Sequence record: NC_070989.1
Strand: one strand, 5' to 3'
DNA from: Escherichia phage vB_EcoP-CHD5UKE1
DNA length: 64,000 nt
Shown piece after piece: positions 1,276 to 53,740 of the stretch. The notes under the pieces were generated by a model. That model did no database searches. It was given only the letters and a program-made list of their open reading frames with translations, and was not told where the DNA came from. Both the position numbers and the translations under genes were made by a program. The number at the start of each line of letters is the position of its first letter. Positions within the stretch are counted from its first letter, which is position 1.

Positions 1276-1494
1276 ATGAAAATGATGAAACAAGCTGCAT
1301 ATGGTTTAATCTGTTTAGGTGCAGGTGTTGTGGTGTCAACCGCAGTTCCTGTAAGCGCAGTTCATCCACTAGTAACTGTCCCTGCTCCAGTAGAGAAGCT
1401 TAGCTCTCAATGCAAGCAGAGAACAATTCAAAATAACCTAGTTGTTATTTGTCCTGATGCTGAATCTAACGCTCTAAGAAAGATACTACCTTAA
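1276..1494 (+). CDS. small secreted/membrane protein (N-terminal signal-like hydrophobic segment), possibly lysis-associated
   Basis: RBS AGGAGA 8 nt upstream of ATG; hydrophobic N-terminus AAYGLICLGAGVVVSTAVPVSA; lies directly upstream of the lysozyme gene. Confidence 0.5.
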   Translation: MKMMKQAAYGLICLGAGVVVSTAVPVSAVHPLVTVPAPVEKLSSQCKQRTIQNNLVVICPDAESNALRKILP

Positions 1495-1523
1495 TTTAAA
1501 GGGACCACAAAAGGAGGTTAGAA

Positions 1524-2015
1524 ATGGATAACGTCGCATTGCCACCTGTACAATTAAACTTAAGCCCAGCTGGAATGGAATTCATCATGAAGCATGAGGG
1601 TATGAGAACAAAGGCTTATAAAGATTCCGCAGGTATCTGGACTATATGTGTAGGGGCTACGCGCGATATGAATGGTTATCCGGTTAGACAAGGATTAACG
1701 TATTCTATAGAGGATTGTCTAGCTCTGCTAGATAGAGACACACAAGACTCTGTTCGTGCTACTCAGAAGAACATAAAGGTTCCTTTACTAGTTCATGAGT
1801 TTGATGCACTCACTTCTTTCAACTTCAACGTTGGCAGTGGTGCTTTGAGCACATCTAAGTTAAGGAAAGTAATCAATGGAGATGTTAAGGGAGACGTTTA
1901 TTCCGAATTTCTTCGTTGGGATAAAATAACGGTCAAGGGAGAGAAGCAGAGAAGTCAGGGTCTTCATAATAGAAGAGTTGCAGAAGCTAATCTTTACACC
2001 GAAGGTAAATATTAA
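1524..2015 (+). CDS. lysozyme/endolysin, glycoside hydrolase family 24 (T4 E-like)
   Basis: RBS AAGGAGG; motifs HEG...KAYKD..G.WTI.VG and FDALTSFNFNVG align with T4-type lysozyme catalytic region. Confidence 0.9.
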   Translation: MDNVALPPVQLNLSPAGMEFIMKHEGMRTKAYKDSAGIWTICVGATRDMNGYPVRQGLTYSIEDCLALLDRDTQDSVRATQKNIKVPLLVHEFDALTSFNFNVGSGALSTSKLRKVINGDVKGDVYSEFLRWDKITVKGEKQRSQGLHNRRVAEANLYTEGKY

Positions 2016-2027
2016 TGGAGGTGCCTT

Positions 2028-2831
2028 TTGGCTATCGAAACTAATGCGGTAGTTATTACCGATTTAAACCCACTCTATCCTAGAGACAGGGATTACATCT
2101 ACGAGGGGGCGGCTCAAATCCGCCTCATTAAACAAACATTACAGAATACATTCCCCAATGTTACAGAACCAGTTGATATTGATTCTGACACCTTTAAGAT
2201 TATGTCAGAGAAGCTCAAGTTTACTGGTGATGCAATGGATGTTGGTGGTCTTATGATCAAGAACGTTACTCCGGGAACTGGCGACAAGGACGTTGTTACT
2301 AAAGGCCAGATGGAAGCGTTCATGAAGAACTGGATGGAGAATAAGCTCTATCGAATTGGTTCTTACTACATCACTGAAGAAGATATTAACCCCGGTGATT
2401 CTATCTCCTTAGGGTTTGGTTCTTGGGCTAAAGTGACTGGTGTCATTATGGGCACTGGTGTAGTAAACCCTGATGGTTCTGTCCCTAATGCTCAGAGAGT
2501 TGAGTTCCAAGCAGGTGGTACTGGTGGTCGTGTCTTCAACACCATTCGAACAGAGAACGTACCTTTGATGACAGTTAATGGCTCCAGCTTCTCCTTATCC
2601 AGTAACACCCACAGCCACAATATGGTATTTGGTCGTGGAGATGCTAGTGGTCATAACAGCTCGCCAAACTGGTATAGCCCGGGTGGTGGTTACAGCCAGA
2701 GAACTGATAATGACACACATACTCATACAATCTCTGGTAGTGTAAGTCTTGGTCGTGATGATATCTCTCGTCAACCTATTAACACTTTGCCACCATTCAG
2801 AGCAGCTCACATTTGGAGACGTATTAGCTAA
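2028..2831 (+). CDS. virion structural protein (putative tail/fibre-associated), Gly-rich
   Basis: Only in-frame start after upstream stop is TTG at 2028, preceded by GGAGGT; position inside structural module; no recognisable catalytic motif. Confidence 0.55.
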   Translation: MAIETNAVVITDLNPLYPRDRDYIYEGAAQIRLIKQTLQNTFPNVTEPVDIDSDTFKIMSEKLKFTGDAMDVGGLMIKNVTPGTGDKDVVTKGQMEAFMKNWMENKLYRIGSYYITEEDINPGDSISLGFGSWAKVTGVIMGTGVVNPDGSVPNAQRVEFQAGGTGGRVFNTIRTENVPLMTVNGSSFSLSSNTHSHNMVFGRGDASGHNSSPNWYSPGGGYSQRTDNDTHTHTISGSVSLGRDDISRQPINTLPPFRAAHIWRRIS

Positions 2832-2840
2832 GGAGGAATT

Positions 2841-5800
2841 ATGGCGCTGTATCCAATAAAGTCGCTAGGTGCTGTAGGCGTTATCGCTGATCAGGCTCCG
2901 ACAGACTTAGCTCCTAATGCTTTCACTAATGCTATAAATGCTCGATTTGTTGAGCAGAGAGTATTTAAGACGGGGGGCAATGCCCCTCTTTCTTATGTAG
3001 ACGAAGATAAGGATTTAACCCCTCTGTCTTTCGTTTCTATGCCTTTCGATTATTATAGCGCAGGTAATAGCTTTCTTGTTGTAGGTACAGATAAGAAGTT
3101 ATATAAACTGACAGATGAAAGCTTGACTGATATTAGCCGTAAGGTTGCTACAGTCACCAAGAAGGCTTCTGCCTCAATTAAGATTTATCCAGTTGTTTCT
3201 CAGATCGTTCCTAAAGAATCAACTATCTCAATGAACTTCAATCAGACCAAGAATCTAGAGGTTTCTCTTCTCCCTGCCGATGCTAACAATACTGATCTTA
3301 TTTGGGAGGTTAGTAATTCATCCTATGGAAGTGTTATGGTAGACCCTAGTGACTCCAAACTTGCTACTCTAACATCTTTTGAGAAAGAGGGTAATCTTGT
3401 AGTAACTATCTCTACTGCCAATGAATCCGTAGTGGCTCAGATTGCTGTTAATATCATCGATGGTGATTCAGGCATCTTCTTGAGTCAAGATACTGTTACA
3501 ATTCGTAAAGGAGGGACTACTACTCTCACGGTTGTTACTGGCAAAACCCCTGTAACTTGGTCCAGCAATAACGCTTCTATTGTATCTGTAACCCCTAACG
3601 CCAACTCTTTAACTGCTGTCATTACAGCGAATGGAGAAGGTAATGTAACAATCACTGCTGATAACGGGACTAAGACTGCTTCTTGTGAGATTGTTTCTAT
3701 CCCTCAGATTGATAGTATCTCTTTAAGCCAGTCAGATGTTACTGTGAGTAGAGGTTCTCAGTATATTTTAACTGCCACCCTTTCTCCTGCTAACGCCCCT
3801 AATCAAAACATTACTTGGACCTCTTCTAACCCAAATATTGCAACAGTATCAGGGACTAGCACACAAGGGACAGTAAATGCTTTACTTGCTGGCTTTACTG
3901 AGATTACAGCTACCACTGAAGAAGGTAATAGAGTTGCTGTCTGTACTGTACGTGTAGATTTAGCTGGAAGGACAATGAGAACAAGTGCTATGGCATTTGC
4001 TGCTCCTGTATCAGAGTCGGTAGAAACTCAAGATGAGGAAGTAGTAACTCCTCCTGAAAGTGAGGAAGTTGTTTATTTTGCTGAGCCTACATCTGGTATA
4101 GATACGTCAGGGATGTATGAAGGTAATAACTTCTATGACTACTCTAACGTGAATGATATTGAAGGTTTTGCAAGAGCTTCTTTACTGGCAACCCCTTTGT
4201 CATCTGTAACCTTAGATATTGTCAGCGCTTCTCTTGATGTTGGTGAAGAGATTGTCATTACAGCCACAGCTTCTCCAGAAGGTGAGTACTCTTATCAGTG
4301 GTCTGTTGATAAAACTGGTTATGTTTCTACAACTTCAGTTACTGGTAAATCTATCAAACTGGTTGCTCTTCGTAAAGGAGAGATTAACGTAACATGTACT
4401 GTCAGTCAGATGACTCAGAAAGATTACGATGCTTTTGATGACTATCCTTGGTATCACGCTGTTATCTCTAACTGTGCAGTTGCTACAACTCACTATGAAA
4501 CTCCTCAGGTAAAAGAATTCGAATCAGAATACTTTGTAGACCTTCCGGGGTGGGGTGAGCAAACAGTTGTTGATAATGATGGAAACCCTTCAGTCAAGAA
4601 GTTTAACTGGAAATGTGAGAGAGTGAGATCTTTTAACAACCGTCTTTTTGCCCTGAATATGAGAGAGGCTAATGCTTCTGGTGTTACCACTAACTACCCG
4701 CTTCGTCTTCGTTGGTCTAACTTTGCCAATGAGAACAAGGCTCCTACACTGTGGGATGATTTTGCTTACGATCGTGTTGTGTCTTCGGACTTAGCTTCTA
4801 ACATCGTAGGGCAGACTCAGGCTCTAGAGAATGGATATGCTGGTTACATTGATTTAGCTGACTCTAACGGCAGCTTGATTGATATCCTACCTCTTAAAGA
4901 TTACTTGTTCGTTTATACAGAGTTTGAAACGTATATAGGTTCTCCGACTAATAACACGTACCAACCTCTAATGTTCAAGAAGCTCTTTAATGACTCTGGT
5001 ATCCTTGCTCCTGAGTGTGTGGTTGAAGTAGAAGGTAGTCACTTCGTAGTTACTCAGAACGATGTAATCTTACACAATGGTGCAACCAAGAAGTCAATTG
5101 CATCTAACCGTGTCAAGAACATGTTGATTAACGAGGTGTGTCTGGTTAACCCTCTAGCAACTCGAGTACACTTGCATCAGGATAAGAAAGAAGTTTGGGT
5201 TCTGTACGTAGGTCCGGGAGAACCAAAAGAAAGCTTCGCTTGTACTAAAGCTGCTGTATGGAATTATGAGTTTGATACTTGGTCTTTCCGTACTATTCCA
5301 TATGCTCAGTGTATCGGTCTTGTTGATCCTCCTGTTTTAGAAAGAGGTCCAATCTGGTCTGACTTCCAAGAAATCACTTGGGATGACCCATCTATTAAAG
5401 AACTTGTTTGGAGAAAGGATGCAACAAACTTCAGACAGAGGGTTACGATAGTAGGTTCGTTCTTGAGGGGATTCTATCAGGTGGATGTAGGTGCTCTTGA
5501 CTATTTCTATGACAGGCTAAACGATGTTGTTATAGAGAAGCCTCTGGAAATGAGGTTGGAGAGGACTGGTATAGATTTTGATAATGTGACTAATGAGTGG
5601 AATCAGAAGCATATTAACAGGTTCCGGCCTCAGACAACCGGTTCAGGTACTTACATATTTGAAGCTGGTGGTAGTCAATTCTCAAATGAATATGGACACC
5701 CACACACATCGAAGACTTATACAATTGGTGTTGACAGGCATGTCTCGGTGAGACTGAACCATCCATACCTTTTCTATAATGTTATAGATAATGATGTTAA

Positions 5801-52407: not shown

Positions 52408-52689
52408 TTACCACTCCTTACCGGTTGTTGTTACAGAACCACCACACCACTGCGCATCGGATAAGGTTTTAGTCTCCTCATCTACTGCTGCACCATTCAG
52501 GCATGAGATACCACTGTAACGCATATCAATTTCACCAGAATGAACCTTCTCGCCCTTATGCCAGCGAGAAACACAAACACCTTCCACTGCTACTGCACAC
52601 CATCCATCAGGACGGCTCTGTACGCAGCCTGTAAGGGCCACACAGACAAGGAAGATACAGATTAAGGATATTACACCACCCCAACTCAT
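52408..52689 (-). CDS. putative lipoprotein (93 aa)
   Basis: Signal peptide with lipobox LTGC (ISLICIFLVCVALTGCVQS); RBS AGGAGG. Confidence 0.55.
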   Translation of the reverse strand: MSWGGVISLICIFLVCVALTGCVQSRPDGWCAVAVEGVCVSRWHKGEKVHSGEIDMRYSGISCLNGAAVDEETKTLSDAQWCGGSVTTTGKEW

Positions 52690-52834
52690 AACTACCTCCT
52701 ATTTGATTTGGTGGACTATCTGGAATCGAACCAGAAGCTCACTAAGAAAGTAATTCCCACTGTTATAAAAGCACTTGCCTCAACAGGGATACACTAACTC
52801 TGGTGCCGTACCCATACTAGCCCTTGTTTAAAAT

Positions 52835-52910
52835 TGGTCGGGACGGAAGGATTCGAACCCTCGTAAGGCGAGTTAGAAGCTCGCTGCCTGTTCCACTAGA
52901 CTACGCCCCG
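52835..52910 (-). tRNA. tRNA-Arg (anticodon UCU), 76 nt with encoded CCA
   Basis: Cloverleaf folded by hand: acceptor CGGGGCG/CGTCCCG (one G-U), D-stem GTCT/AGGC, anticodon stem GCGAG/CTCGC with loop CTTCTAA, T-stem GAGGG/CCTTC with loop TTCGAAT, discriminator A, CCA. Confidence 0.8.
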
Positions 52911-53323
52911 ATAGATTTGAAACCGTTATACTTACCTGCACATGATCTGTTACAAAAAGAATTTGCATATTTAACATTTCGCTTTTCTTTTTCAAAAGAT
53001 CTTCCACAATAAGAGCAAACAACTGAAATCATTGTTCTTCCAGTAGTTGCTTCTAATGTTGACTTCTTTCTGTGATTTTCTATGGAAAGTATCTGAAGAT
53101 TAGATATGTCATCATTAGTTTTATTTCTGTCAATATGATCAACCTCCTCGTCTTCAGTTAGGTACCTGCCTATGTGACAAGACATTAAATATCTTGCGTA
53201 AGAAATGGTTGTCCTCTCCGTGTCGGTATTATACAAATCAACACGCTTCCTACCGTCTCTGCTTGTTCTTAAGTAGCCCAATCGCCAGTCATTAACGAAG
53301 GGGTATTCTAACTCTATCTTCAA
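52901..53323 (-). CDS. HNH homing endonuclease
   Basis: EEVDHIDRNKTNDDISNLQILSIENHRKK HNH core plus C-terminal Cys cluster; stop codon lies within the tRNA 5' acceptor stem. Confidence 0.7.
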   Translation of the reverse strand: MKIELEYPFVNDWRLGYLRTSRDGRKRVDLYNTDTERTTISYARYLMSCHIGRYLTEDEEVDHIDRNKTNDDISNLQILSIENHRKKSTLEATTGRTMISVVCSYCGRSFEKEKRNVKYANSFCNRSCAGKYNGFKSIGA

Positions 53324-53357
53324 AACCCCTCCATTGAGCTAAGGGTGCTGAGTTTGT

Positions 53358-53567
53358 TTAACTAAAGATACGCAAGGCCACATCGTGACCGATATGACCG
53401 GGAACTTTATGCTGTTCTATTTTCAAACAGCGCTTACAGACACGAGATACACTAGACTCTTTTCTCTCGACTGGAGTGTCTTTAGCGTGAGTGATTTGAA
53501 GGTTTTCAGTGATCACCCACTCGTGTTTACATCCAGAATCTTCGGGCTTTTTCTTACGAAAGAACAT
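53358..53567 (-). CDS. small zinc-ribbon protein, tandem paralogue (family B)
   Basis: CKHEW...CKRC pattern; ORF-track ORF trimmed to internal ATG 53567. Confidence 0.45.
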   Translation of the reverse strand: MFFRKKKPEDSGCKHEWVITENLQITHAKDTPVERKESSVSRVCKRCLKIEQHKVPGHIGHDVALRIFS

Positions 53568-53575
53568 AACACCCC

Positions 53576-53740
53576 TTAGATCAGATCTGTTTTCTTGTGC
53601 AGACCACAAACTTTACAGCGAGAGTAGATACGCAACCCTTGTCGCTCTCTGTCAGTAAGTTTATTTGTGATCGTCAGTTCATAAGTAGAAAGATCTTCCC
53701 ACTCATGGAAATGAAAGAAGCGTTTGAACCATTTGATCAT
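53576..53740 (-). CDS. small zinc-ribbon protein, tandem paralogue (family B)
   Basis: Hand-translated 54-aa ORF MIKWFKRFFHFHEW...CKVCG, paralogous to neighbours. Confidence 0.4.
   Translation of the reverse strand: MIKWFKRFFHFHEWEDLSTYELTITNKLTDRERQGLRIYSRCKVCGLHKKTDLI

Follow-up and report, generated by a model that had tools for sequence, protein, structure and literature searches.

An HNH endonuclease gene joined to its own tRNA-Arg(UCU) in the tRNA-Arg slot of a phiEco32-like coliphage: a probable mobile cassette

Free-standing endonuclease genes that lie in the transfer RNA (tRNA) region of a phage genome, with an open reading frame (ORF) running into a tRNA gene, are already known from phages T4 and T5. 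SegB of T4 is encoded by a free-standing homing endonuclease gene in the T4 tRNA cluster, directly upstream of tRNA-Arg; in the transcript, tRNA maturation by RNase P separates the segB stop codon from the last sense codon, an arrangement suggested to restrict production of the endonuclease (Brok-Volchanskaya et al. 2008, PMC2330249). SegB cleaves tRNA genes of endonuclease-less relatives, and its homing co-converts neighbouring tRNA genes, replacing the markers of the recipient (PMC2330249); SegB homologues are statistically associated with tRNAs (PMC13096335). In T5, the ORFs hegC, hegD and T5.069 each overlap, at their 3' ends, the tRNA gene that follows by 14-24 nucleotides (nt). In Aeromonas phage Aeh1, nrdA is split by a free-standing homing endonuclease gene, mobE (as cited in PMC10448857). 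The locus described here belongs to Escherichia phage vB_EcoP-CHD5UKE1 (sequence record NC_070989.1), of which a stretch of 64,000 nt was analysed as a whole, hereafter the window; on its minus strand, an HNH endonuclease gene runs into a tRNA-Arg(UCU) gene.

The window is DNA of a phiEco32-like coliphage (Kuravirus and relatives), with 99% identity to Escherichia phage LorandFenyves_Bas91 (PQ850614); other phiEco32-like phages (~95 records) matched the region with 88-98% identity. A 'homing endonuclease' and a tRNA-Arg are already annotated at the equivalent positions of the Bas91 record, and this instance is thus present as such in GenBank. New are the position of the endonuclease gene inside a resident tRNA gene, the divergent replacement tRNA brought along with it, and the repeated invasion of the slot by unrelated nucleases; the literature was searched and no description of any of the three was found. 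The locus is probably a two-gene mobile cassette, in which a free-standing HNH homing endonuclease gene is joined head-to-tail to its own tRNA-Arg(UCU) and which replaces most of the resident tRNA-Arg(UCU). The observations behind this reading concern the anatomy of the locus, its junctions, the co-occurrence of the two genes, their sporadic distribution and the selection acting on the ORF. Coordinates of all features are given in Table 1.

The boundaries of the insertion were set by comparison with relatives lacking the HNH gene, as had been proposed when the window was read from the sequence alone (hereafter, the sequence-only reading): homology to these relatives breaks at 53330 and restarts at 52824. 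In phiEco32, SU10 and IME267 the HNH gene is absent and a tRNA-Arg(UCU) is located in the same slot; this resident-type tRNA is intact in the three phages and in more than 40 records. The resident allele is host-argU-like, being 83% identical over its full length to E. coli chromosomal tRNA-Arg, a match found in 5,423 of 5,426 genomes. When the segment 53250..53420 was used in a BLAST search, more than 30 HNH-less kuravirus records matched solely from 53330 rightwards, the matched DNA being the upstream gene and the 5' end of the annotated tRNA-Arg. Global alignment with IME267 showed 94.3% identity for 53629..53331 (299 nt) and 89.3% for 52824..52517 (308 nt); in between, matches were limited to scattered tRNA motifs. 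This intervening segment of the window, about 505 nt (53329..52825), takes the place of about 63 nt of IME267 (tRNA nt ~20-76 plus CATTTA).

Directly upstream of the HNH start, and separated from the start codon by 6 nt, lies the resident stub GCACCCTTAGCTCAATGGA (53348..53330). Save for one base (T for C at nt 16), it is identical to nt 1-19 of the intact tRNA-Arg of IME267, and it is unique in the window, where 0.01 chance matches are expected. A stub was present in every HNH-positive relative fetched, with a length of 30 nt in YF01 and O18-011, 27 nt in Bas93, and 19 nt in the window, Bas91 and 1-6af. The 30-nt stub of YF01 and O18-011 ends in ...GGAYAGAGCAGTAG and is followed by GAGGTGATTTTTTG, which comprises the Shine-Dalgarno (SD) sequence and the start codon; the two stubs represent two different resident alleles (GCGCTC...GGATAG and GCACCC...GGACAG, respectively) with the same junction between nt 30 and GAGGTGATTTTTTG. 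The longest stubs therefore indicate that the ancestral insertion separated tRNA nt 30 from nt 31, on the 5' side of the anticodon stem. The 19-nt stub is consistent with a secondary deletion of 11 nt that would have let the GGA of the D-loop join the SD sequence; in the window, the SD sequence of the HNH gene is formed by the GGA of the stub and the next GGGG. Between YF01 and O18-011, the stub, HNH gene and tRNA form a discrete block of 550 nt, 97.1% identical, with unrelated DNA on either side.

The claim of the sequence-only reading that an endonuclease had invaded this locus is upheld by these junctions. That the invasion took place next to a conserved RNA gene is not, as the HNH gene lies inside the resident tRNA gene and the tRNA that it overlaps is a divergent allele. 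An intron-encoded homing endonuclease was also considered and was rejected, as no Rfam intron family was found in the window; the gap of 6 nt between stub and start codon, the lack of a resident 3' part and the complete second tRNA speak against it as well.

The overlapped tRNA was the only one called by ARAGORN in the window (52835..52910, minus strand, anticodon tct). It matched the Rfam tRNA family (RF00005) over 52838..52910 with 52.9 bits (gathering score 29, E=1.6e-8), and the CCA end is encoded at 52837..52835, in agreement with the complete tRNA-Arg(UCU) with encoded CCA that had been read from the letters. UCU is placed within a 7-nt anticodon loop, CUUCUAA, and the tRNA carries C35, U36, A73 and, according to the Rfam alignment, a D-loop A aligned with nt 20. 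The identity elements of the E. coli arginyl-tRNA synthetase are A20 in the D-loop, C35, U36 and a purine at position 73.

This allele, designated type 2, was 50-53% identical to the resident alleles of phiEco32 and SU10. No match to it was found among 5,426 E. coli genomes, and a host origin of the tRNA was accordingly rejected. Seven records contain tRNAs at least 93% identical to it (Bas91, TH43, KM01, YW01, YF01 and two of O18-011), and all seven also hold this HNH gene, with 74-99% amino acid (aa) identity; the complete type-2 tRNA gene was found only in genomes with this HNH gene. The type-2 tRNA is best read as a divergent, non-host-like allele that would have been imported with the HNH gene as a functional replacement for the disrupted resident gene. 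In TH42 and HC-25922, only a 3' fragment of the type-2 tRNA (~33-48 nt) is present and the HNH gene is absent; the fragment (in TH42 at ~1300..1350, minus strand, of the extracted region) is followed by the spacer ATTTTAAACAA and then by a 115-nt tRNA-like element treated below. The fragment looks like a footprint of cassette loss or replacement. The 'recognized anticodon' of the O18-011 record is TTC, where ARAGORN reads tct.

The decoding of AGA and AGG had also been proposed from the sequence. The role in AGA decoding is supported by codon usage and has already been published (PMC9965538). One tRNA-Arg(TCT) per genome was reported in Kuravirus-like phages, and in YF01 AGA accounts for 20.2% of the Arg codons, versus 3.6% in E. 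coli K-12 (PMC9965538). In the window, AGA represents 20.9% and AGG 8.1% of the Arg codons, as counted on a crude ORF set.

The ORF was assigned to the HNH endonucleases, as the sequence-only reading had it, by the Pfam family HNH_3 (PF13392; 27.5 bits, cut-off 24.8) and by phrog_14913, 'HNH endonuclease' (E=4e-55, residues 1-133). A GIY-YIG domain was not found in Pfam or PHROG, which reported HNH families alone. The motif residues D62-H63, N75 and N83-H84, in EVDHIDRNKTNDDISNLQILSIENH, were aligned to the core of I-HmuI and are kept in YF01, O18-011 and Bas93. The core is followed by a zinc-finger-like C-terminal module, C103-x2-C106...C124-x3-C128. The C-terminus, CSYCG...NSFCNRSCAGKYN, resembles an FCS-type zinc finger (PDB 2l8e), although the match is not significant (E=0.7).

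The ORF and the tRNA overlap by 10 nt. The first nucleotide of the tRNA (52910) is the third base of codon Ile138, and codons 139-140 (GGG GCG) span the remainder of the acceptor-stem strand. The stop codon had been placed within the 5' acceptor stem; the overlap is real, but the codon TAG (52903..52901) corresponds to tRNA nt 8-10 (U8, A9 and G10), just 3' of the acceptor-stem strand (52910..52904). Nor is an ORF running into a tRNA diagnostic of invasion as such, as had been supposed, since this layout is recurrent in T5 and T4.

Eleven of the 14 Arg codons of the HNH ORF are AGA (8) or AGG (3), so its own translation leans heavily on the tRNA that it carries. The dN/dS ratio (nonsynonymous to synonymous substitution rates) was 0.08-0.10, indicating strong purifying selection. 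Between window-type and YF01-type alleles, dS was 1.7-2.0, whereas the surrounding backbones are 93-97% identical, and therefore the cassette alleles are older than the backbones now holding them. The gene was detected in about 10 of the ~90 Kuravirus-like records, sporadically at a fixed locus with sharp homology breakpoints; among the GenBank records with Bas numbering, Bas91 and Bas93 are HNH-positive and Bas86-Bas90 HNH-negative. A locus search of IMG/VR with the HNH protein retrieved three distant loci. Among 12 non-Kuravirus homologues sampled in GenBank phages, six are located within 1.5 kb of tRNA genes, three of them within ~60 nt. A scan for promoters and terminators around the locus gave nothing above chance, and no Rfam family was found for the HNH leader, even at a permissive E-value.

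The same slot has been entered by other endonuclease genes. In Ptacy1532, a classical HNH gene of 91 aa, in reverse orientation, and then a third tRNA-Arg(UCU) allele separate resident nt 1-26 from resident nt 32-76. Both relics (26 nt at the 5' side, 45 nt at the 3' side) are 100% identical to the SU10 gene (1470..2040, minus strand, of the extracted region), and the arrangement looks like a recent, independent invasion. In Paul, the slot contains another tRNA-Arg(UCU) allele, then an endonuclease gene of NUMOD4-HNH_3 type and finally a 3' relic of the resident tRNA, its last ~12 nt (TAGGGGACGCCA); the tRNA-Arg(UCU) allele is without CCA and is enclosed by a 13-bp leader-trailer helix, GAGAGTACTTTAA...TTAAAGTACTCTC (2186..2900, minus strand, of the extracted region). 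The three endonuclease types (window, Ptacy1532 and Paul) show no significant mutual similarity, and each of these unrelated HNH genes is accompanied by a different linked tRNA-Arg(UCU) allele and a leftover stub of the resident gene. The chief argument for a turnover driven by nuclease-made breaks in this gene is the repeated entry of unrelated nuclease genes into one 76-bp gene, each with a substitute tRNA and a stub.

In 1-6af, FH3 and Bas93, a homologue of the window HNH gene (62-66% identical) is followed by an odd tRNA-Arg(UCU)-like RNA, designated type 4, in place of the type-2 tRNA. The 'type 4' RNA was located, in the extracted regions, at 2191..2303 (minus strand) of 1-6af, ~1930..2040 (plus strand) of Bas93 and ~1350..1500 (minus strand) of TH42. 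It has a 7-bp acceptor stem, U8-A9, no D-arm, the anticodon loop CUUCUAA, a long extra region and a T-arm; it lacks CCA, is enclosed by a 10-bp outer leader-trailer helix and is not called by ARAGORN. Four compensatory double changes and no disruptions were read by eye between 1-6af and TH42, at acceptor pairs 2, 5 and 7 and at the closing pair of the anticodon stem.

Table 1. Features of the tRNA-Arg locus and of related genes in the window.
Feature	Coordinates	Strand	Basis
Resident tRNA-Arg 5' stub, 19 nt (nt 1-19, acceptor strand to D-loop)	53330..53348	-	Alignment of relatives
Free-standing HNH endonuclease gene, 140 aa, TTG start	52901..53323	-	Pfam HNH_3, phrog_14913
Intact tRNA-Arg(UCU), 76 nt, CCA encoded, 'type 2' allele	52835..52910	-	ARAGORN, Rfam
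Inserted/replaced segment: SD sequence, HNH gene, type-2 tRNA and 11-nt spacer ATTTTAAACAA	52825..53329	-	IME267 alignment
Conserved tRNA-like element, 115 nt; right-hand cassette boundary, outside the cassette	52709..52823	-	Unannotated in every record
Upstream small gene, 83 aa, phrog_13426 (function unknown); left homologous flank	53358..53609	-	PHROG, alignment
Downstream gene, 93 aa, phrog_4281, 'putative lipoprotein' in phiEco32 and SU10; right homologous flank	52408..52689	-	
Nucleotidyltransferase ORF, 472 aa, phrog_12715	34850..36268	-	PHROG full-length match

A mechanism may be proposed for the cassette. In a mixed infection, genomes without the HNH gene would be cut or nicked by the HNH enzyme in their intact resident tRNA-Arg gene, close to the anticodon stem, and recombinational repair from the HNH-carrying genome would bring in the HNH gene and the linked tRNA. 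Cleavage near the insertion and resistance of the carrier are suggested by the position of the stub (resident nt 19-30) and by the 50% divergence of the linked tRNA: a carrier genome would be immune to its own HNH enzyme because the resident target is disrupted and the replacement tRNA differs from it at about half of the positions. The replacement tRNA would at the same time maintain the decoding of AGA, needed by the phage (AGA 21% of Arg codons) and by the HNH ORF. With the HNH stop codon inside the tRNA, processing of the tRNA by RNase P would sever the HNH mRNA within codon 138 and strip it of its stop codon; by analogy with what was proposed for T4 segB and for the endonucleases of the T5 tRNA region, this cut probably keeps the level of the HNH endonuclease low. 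The structure of the sequenced loci supports the proposed mechanism well.

Several points weigh against this reading. Cleavage of the resident tRNA-Arg gene, or of any site, by the HNH enzyme is inferred, as is regulation by RNase P cleavage, the latter from position alone. A predicted hairpin over the SD sequence and start codon of the HNH gene (-15.9 kcal/mol) was not significant (z=-1.3). A 3' relic of the resident tRNA was searched for in the window and none remains, so the right junction is set only by the loss of homology. The other six of the 12 non-Kuravirus homologues sampled have no nearby tRNA, and the HNH family is therefore not strictly tRNA-targeted; the association is a tendency, not a rule. 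The identity of the YF01 and O18-011 cassettes (97.1%) is not above that of their alignable flanks (92-98%), which leaves no signature of very recent transfer. One old replacement followed by ordinary recombination of the flanks could yield much of the pattern.

Ordinary mosaic recombination with no homing is the best surviving of the alternatives, and it is considered unlikely. The HNH-tRNA module would have been acquired once from a phage with a tRNA array, e.g., a PVP-SE1-like myovirus, by illegitimate or short-homology recombination (for instance at conserved tRNA motifs), and then shuffled among kuraviruses by general recombination; the HNH enzyme would not be aimed at tRNA-Arg, and might act at other sites or have a different role, for example in competition or in anti-defence gene amplification, as shown for SegB. 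The nearest non-Kuravirus relatives of the type-2 tRNA are indeed the tRNA-Arg(UCU) genes of PVP-SE1-like myoviruses (82% identity), in whose tRNA arrays an HNH homologue (43% aa identity) is co-oriented with and upstream of tRNA-Leu and tRNA-Arg. The identity of the YF01 and O18-011 cassettes relative to their flanks and the homologues distant from tRNAs are also in line with this explanation, and roles of SegB beyond homing have been described (PMC13096335). However, three unrelated HNH genes within a single gene of ~76 bp, located at or close to either the anticodon stem or the 3' end, each with a different tRNA and a stub, are hard to explain without nuclease breaks, and the strong purifying selection on the HNH gene, together with its sporadic distribution, is typical of active homing genes.

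Much less probable is a turnover of tRNA alleles driven by host anti-tRNA defences, with selection of variants resistant to anticodon nucleases and the HNH genes as hitch-hikers. Phages are known to use tRNAs against defences that cleave tRNA (PARIS, Septu), and at least five very different tRNA-Arg(UCU) or tRNA-like alleles occur in the slot. Nevertheless, resident and imported tRNAs have the same anticodon loop (CUUCUAA), which gives no loop-level sign that an anticodon nuclease is being escaped; tight linkage to HNH genes and the presence of stubs are left unexplained, and no defence nuclease specific for tRNA-Arg(UCU) turned up in the literature, in which no search aimed at one was made. 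Finally, a conserved resident tRNA at 52835..52910, with the HNH gene merely inserted immediately upstream, would agree with the abutting of ORF and tRNA and with the single tRNA-Arg(UCU) reported in this region of all Kuravirus-like phages (PMC9965538), but it is scarcely credible, being already contradicted by the true resident 5' stub on the far side of the HNH gene and by the distribution of the alleles, as the window tRNA is just 50-53% identical to the resident alleles within an 89-95% identical backbone and its complete type-2 allele never occurs without the HNH gene.

A broader interpretation can be put forward, tentatively: the Kuravirus tRNA-Arg slot might constitute a natural 'cleave-and-rescue' arena, in which unrelated HNH enzymes each target the sole tRNA gene and spread by means of a recoded, cleavage-immune tRNA-Arg(UCU). 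Were this the case, the rapid replacement of a viral tRNA gene would be the work of selfish nucleases and not of codon usage or host defence, and the D-arm-less tRNA-like alleles, the tRNAs enclosed in 10-13-bp leader-trailer helices and the 115-nt element, which may be a new stable phage RNA, would be by-products of this process. The tRNA genes of phages are usually attributed to codon usage and, lately, to evasion of host defences that cleave tRNAs; this locus suggests a third force, homing endonucleases that land in a tRNA gene and swap in their own allele. It also offers a compact natural system that combines a single tRNA in a single slot with at least three nuclease families and for which carrier and non-carrier isolates are deposited (Bas86-Bas93). 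Such a system is suited to the questions of how a useful gene is invaded without cost, how immunity of the target originates and whether tRNA processing throttles endonuclease expression.

The 115-nt element (52823..52709, minus strand) is located in tandem between the imported tRNA and the next gene. It possesses a 6-bp acceptor stem, U8-A9, a 3-bp D-arm with GG, the T-arm TCTGG-TTCGATT-CCAGA, A73 and CCA, and an interior of 64 nt that is not tRNA-like. It was found in 28 records (≥95% identical), in none of which it is annotated, and many relatives, e.g., phiEco32, are without it. Over nine genomes, identity was 96.5-100% (mean 98.4%), with four variable sites and no indel, versus a mean of 73% for the 220 nt downstream (three different genes) and 79% for the 90 nt upstream. 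The element is thus far more conserved than both flanks, which argues for a selected RNA rather than a decaying relic.

The 115-nt element matched no Rfam family, even at a permissive E-value. Divergent copies were not found in two pattern scans of IMG/VR, and a single metagenome scan gave three chance 20-mer matches without tRNA-like context. An identity as a real tRNA was rejected, since ARAGORN called it at 70-80% thresholds only, with an artificial 22-nt 'intron' and a 4-bp anticodon stem. The constrained tRNA-like fold was 4.5 kcal/mol worse than the minimum free energy structure, and the middle of the element was not more stable than shuffled sequences (z=-0.9). Its closest analogues are the T5 'tRNA-like stable RNAs with unknown functions' (rna1, 144 nt; rna2, 125 nt) and the T4 species I and II RNAs, which are of similar length, are in tandem with tRNA genes on the same strand, and combine T-arm and acceptor ends with a non-tRNA interior. 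In contrast to these RNAs, with which it shares no sequence similarity, the Kuravirus element is known from its sequence alone.

With regard to the remaining genes, the stop codon of the 83-aa upstream gene (53358..53609) lies 9 nt ahead of the tRNA stub. The sequence-only reading had also suggested that a CCA-enzyme-like nucleotidyltransferase elsewhere in the window protects or repairs tRNA 3' ends. The true extent of this ORF is 34850..36268 (minus strand, 472 aa), not 34850..36211, and its full-length match, phrog_12715, is a generic 'nucleotidyltransferase'. The PolyA_pol head domain scored 18.6 bits, under the Pfam cut-off of 23, no PDB sequence match was obtained at E≤1, and nothing links the ORF to the HNH gene; the suggestion is not supported. 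For annotation, the present data flag missed tRNAs, HNH genes, tRNA stubs and the 115-nt element in many kuraviruses of GenBank. The tRNA-Arg and/or the HNH gene are present but unannotated in KM01, YW01, SU10, NJ01, PGN6866, 1-6af and other Kuravirus records.

Among the described systems, SegB of T4 resembles the window locus in that an endonuclease gene lies among phage tRNA genes, upstream of a tRNA-Arg, with the end of its ORF cut off, as is predicted for the window, by tRNA maturation. On the other hand, SegB is a GIY-YIG and not an HNH enzyme, and its target is the T-psi-C motif, which many tRNA genes carry at their 3' end; its gene sits between T4 tRNA genes, not in a disrupted one, and no stub or single 'rescue' tRNA has been described for it. 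Its cleavage has been demonstrated, whereas that of the window HNH enzyme is presumed. The resemblance is one of layout and presumed behaviour, not of ancestry.

The T5 genes hegC (YP_006892.1), hegD and T5.069 are, like that of the window, HNH genes in a tRNA region, co-oriented with the tRNAs; hegC is the protein named 'H-N-H endonuclease TflI' in the record of PA11, whose homologue is annotated as TflI-like. The window HNH protein showed 39% identity to hegD over 56 aa and 40% to hegC over 48 aa (HNH core and start of the zinc finger). The likeness is distant and confined to ~50 residues, and the T5 proteins are longer (~190 aa versus 140 aa). T5 has 25 tRNAs, while the window has a single-tRNA slot with allele replacement and a stub. 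The T5 tRNA-Gln2 (1345..1420 of the extracted region), entered by hegD (1398..1979), is flagged as a pseudogene and may be another tRNA gene that a neighbouring HNH gene has damaged.

I-HmuI, the intron-encoded HNH nicking endonuclease of SPO1 (PDB 1U3E), was the best PDB sequence match of the window HNH protein, at a level that is not significant (E=0.38), and shares with it an HNH_3-type core, DH...N...N/H. It is intron-encoded and carries NUMOD domains, while the window gene is free-standing and encodes CxxC...CxxxC; the endonuclease of NUMOD4-HNH_3 type in this slot is that of Paul, not that of the window.

Synthetic 'cleave-and-rescue' gene drives are an engineered concept, and the analogy of the window with them is functional only. 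In these drives, as in mobE/nrdA of Aeh1 and in the window, a nuclease gene occupies or destroys a useful target, the function of which is kept in another way. In the window it is kept by a complete substitute RNA gene, linked to the nuclease gene and divergent enough that it should not be cleaved; in Aeh1 it is kept by two gene halves, and in introns and inteins by splicing.

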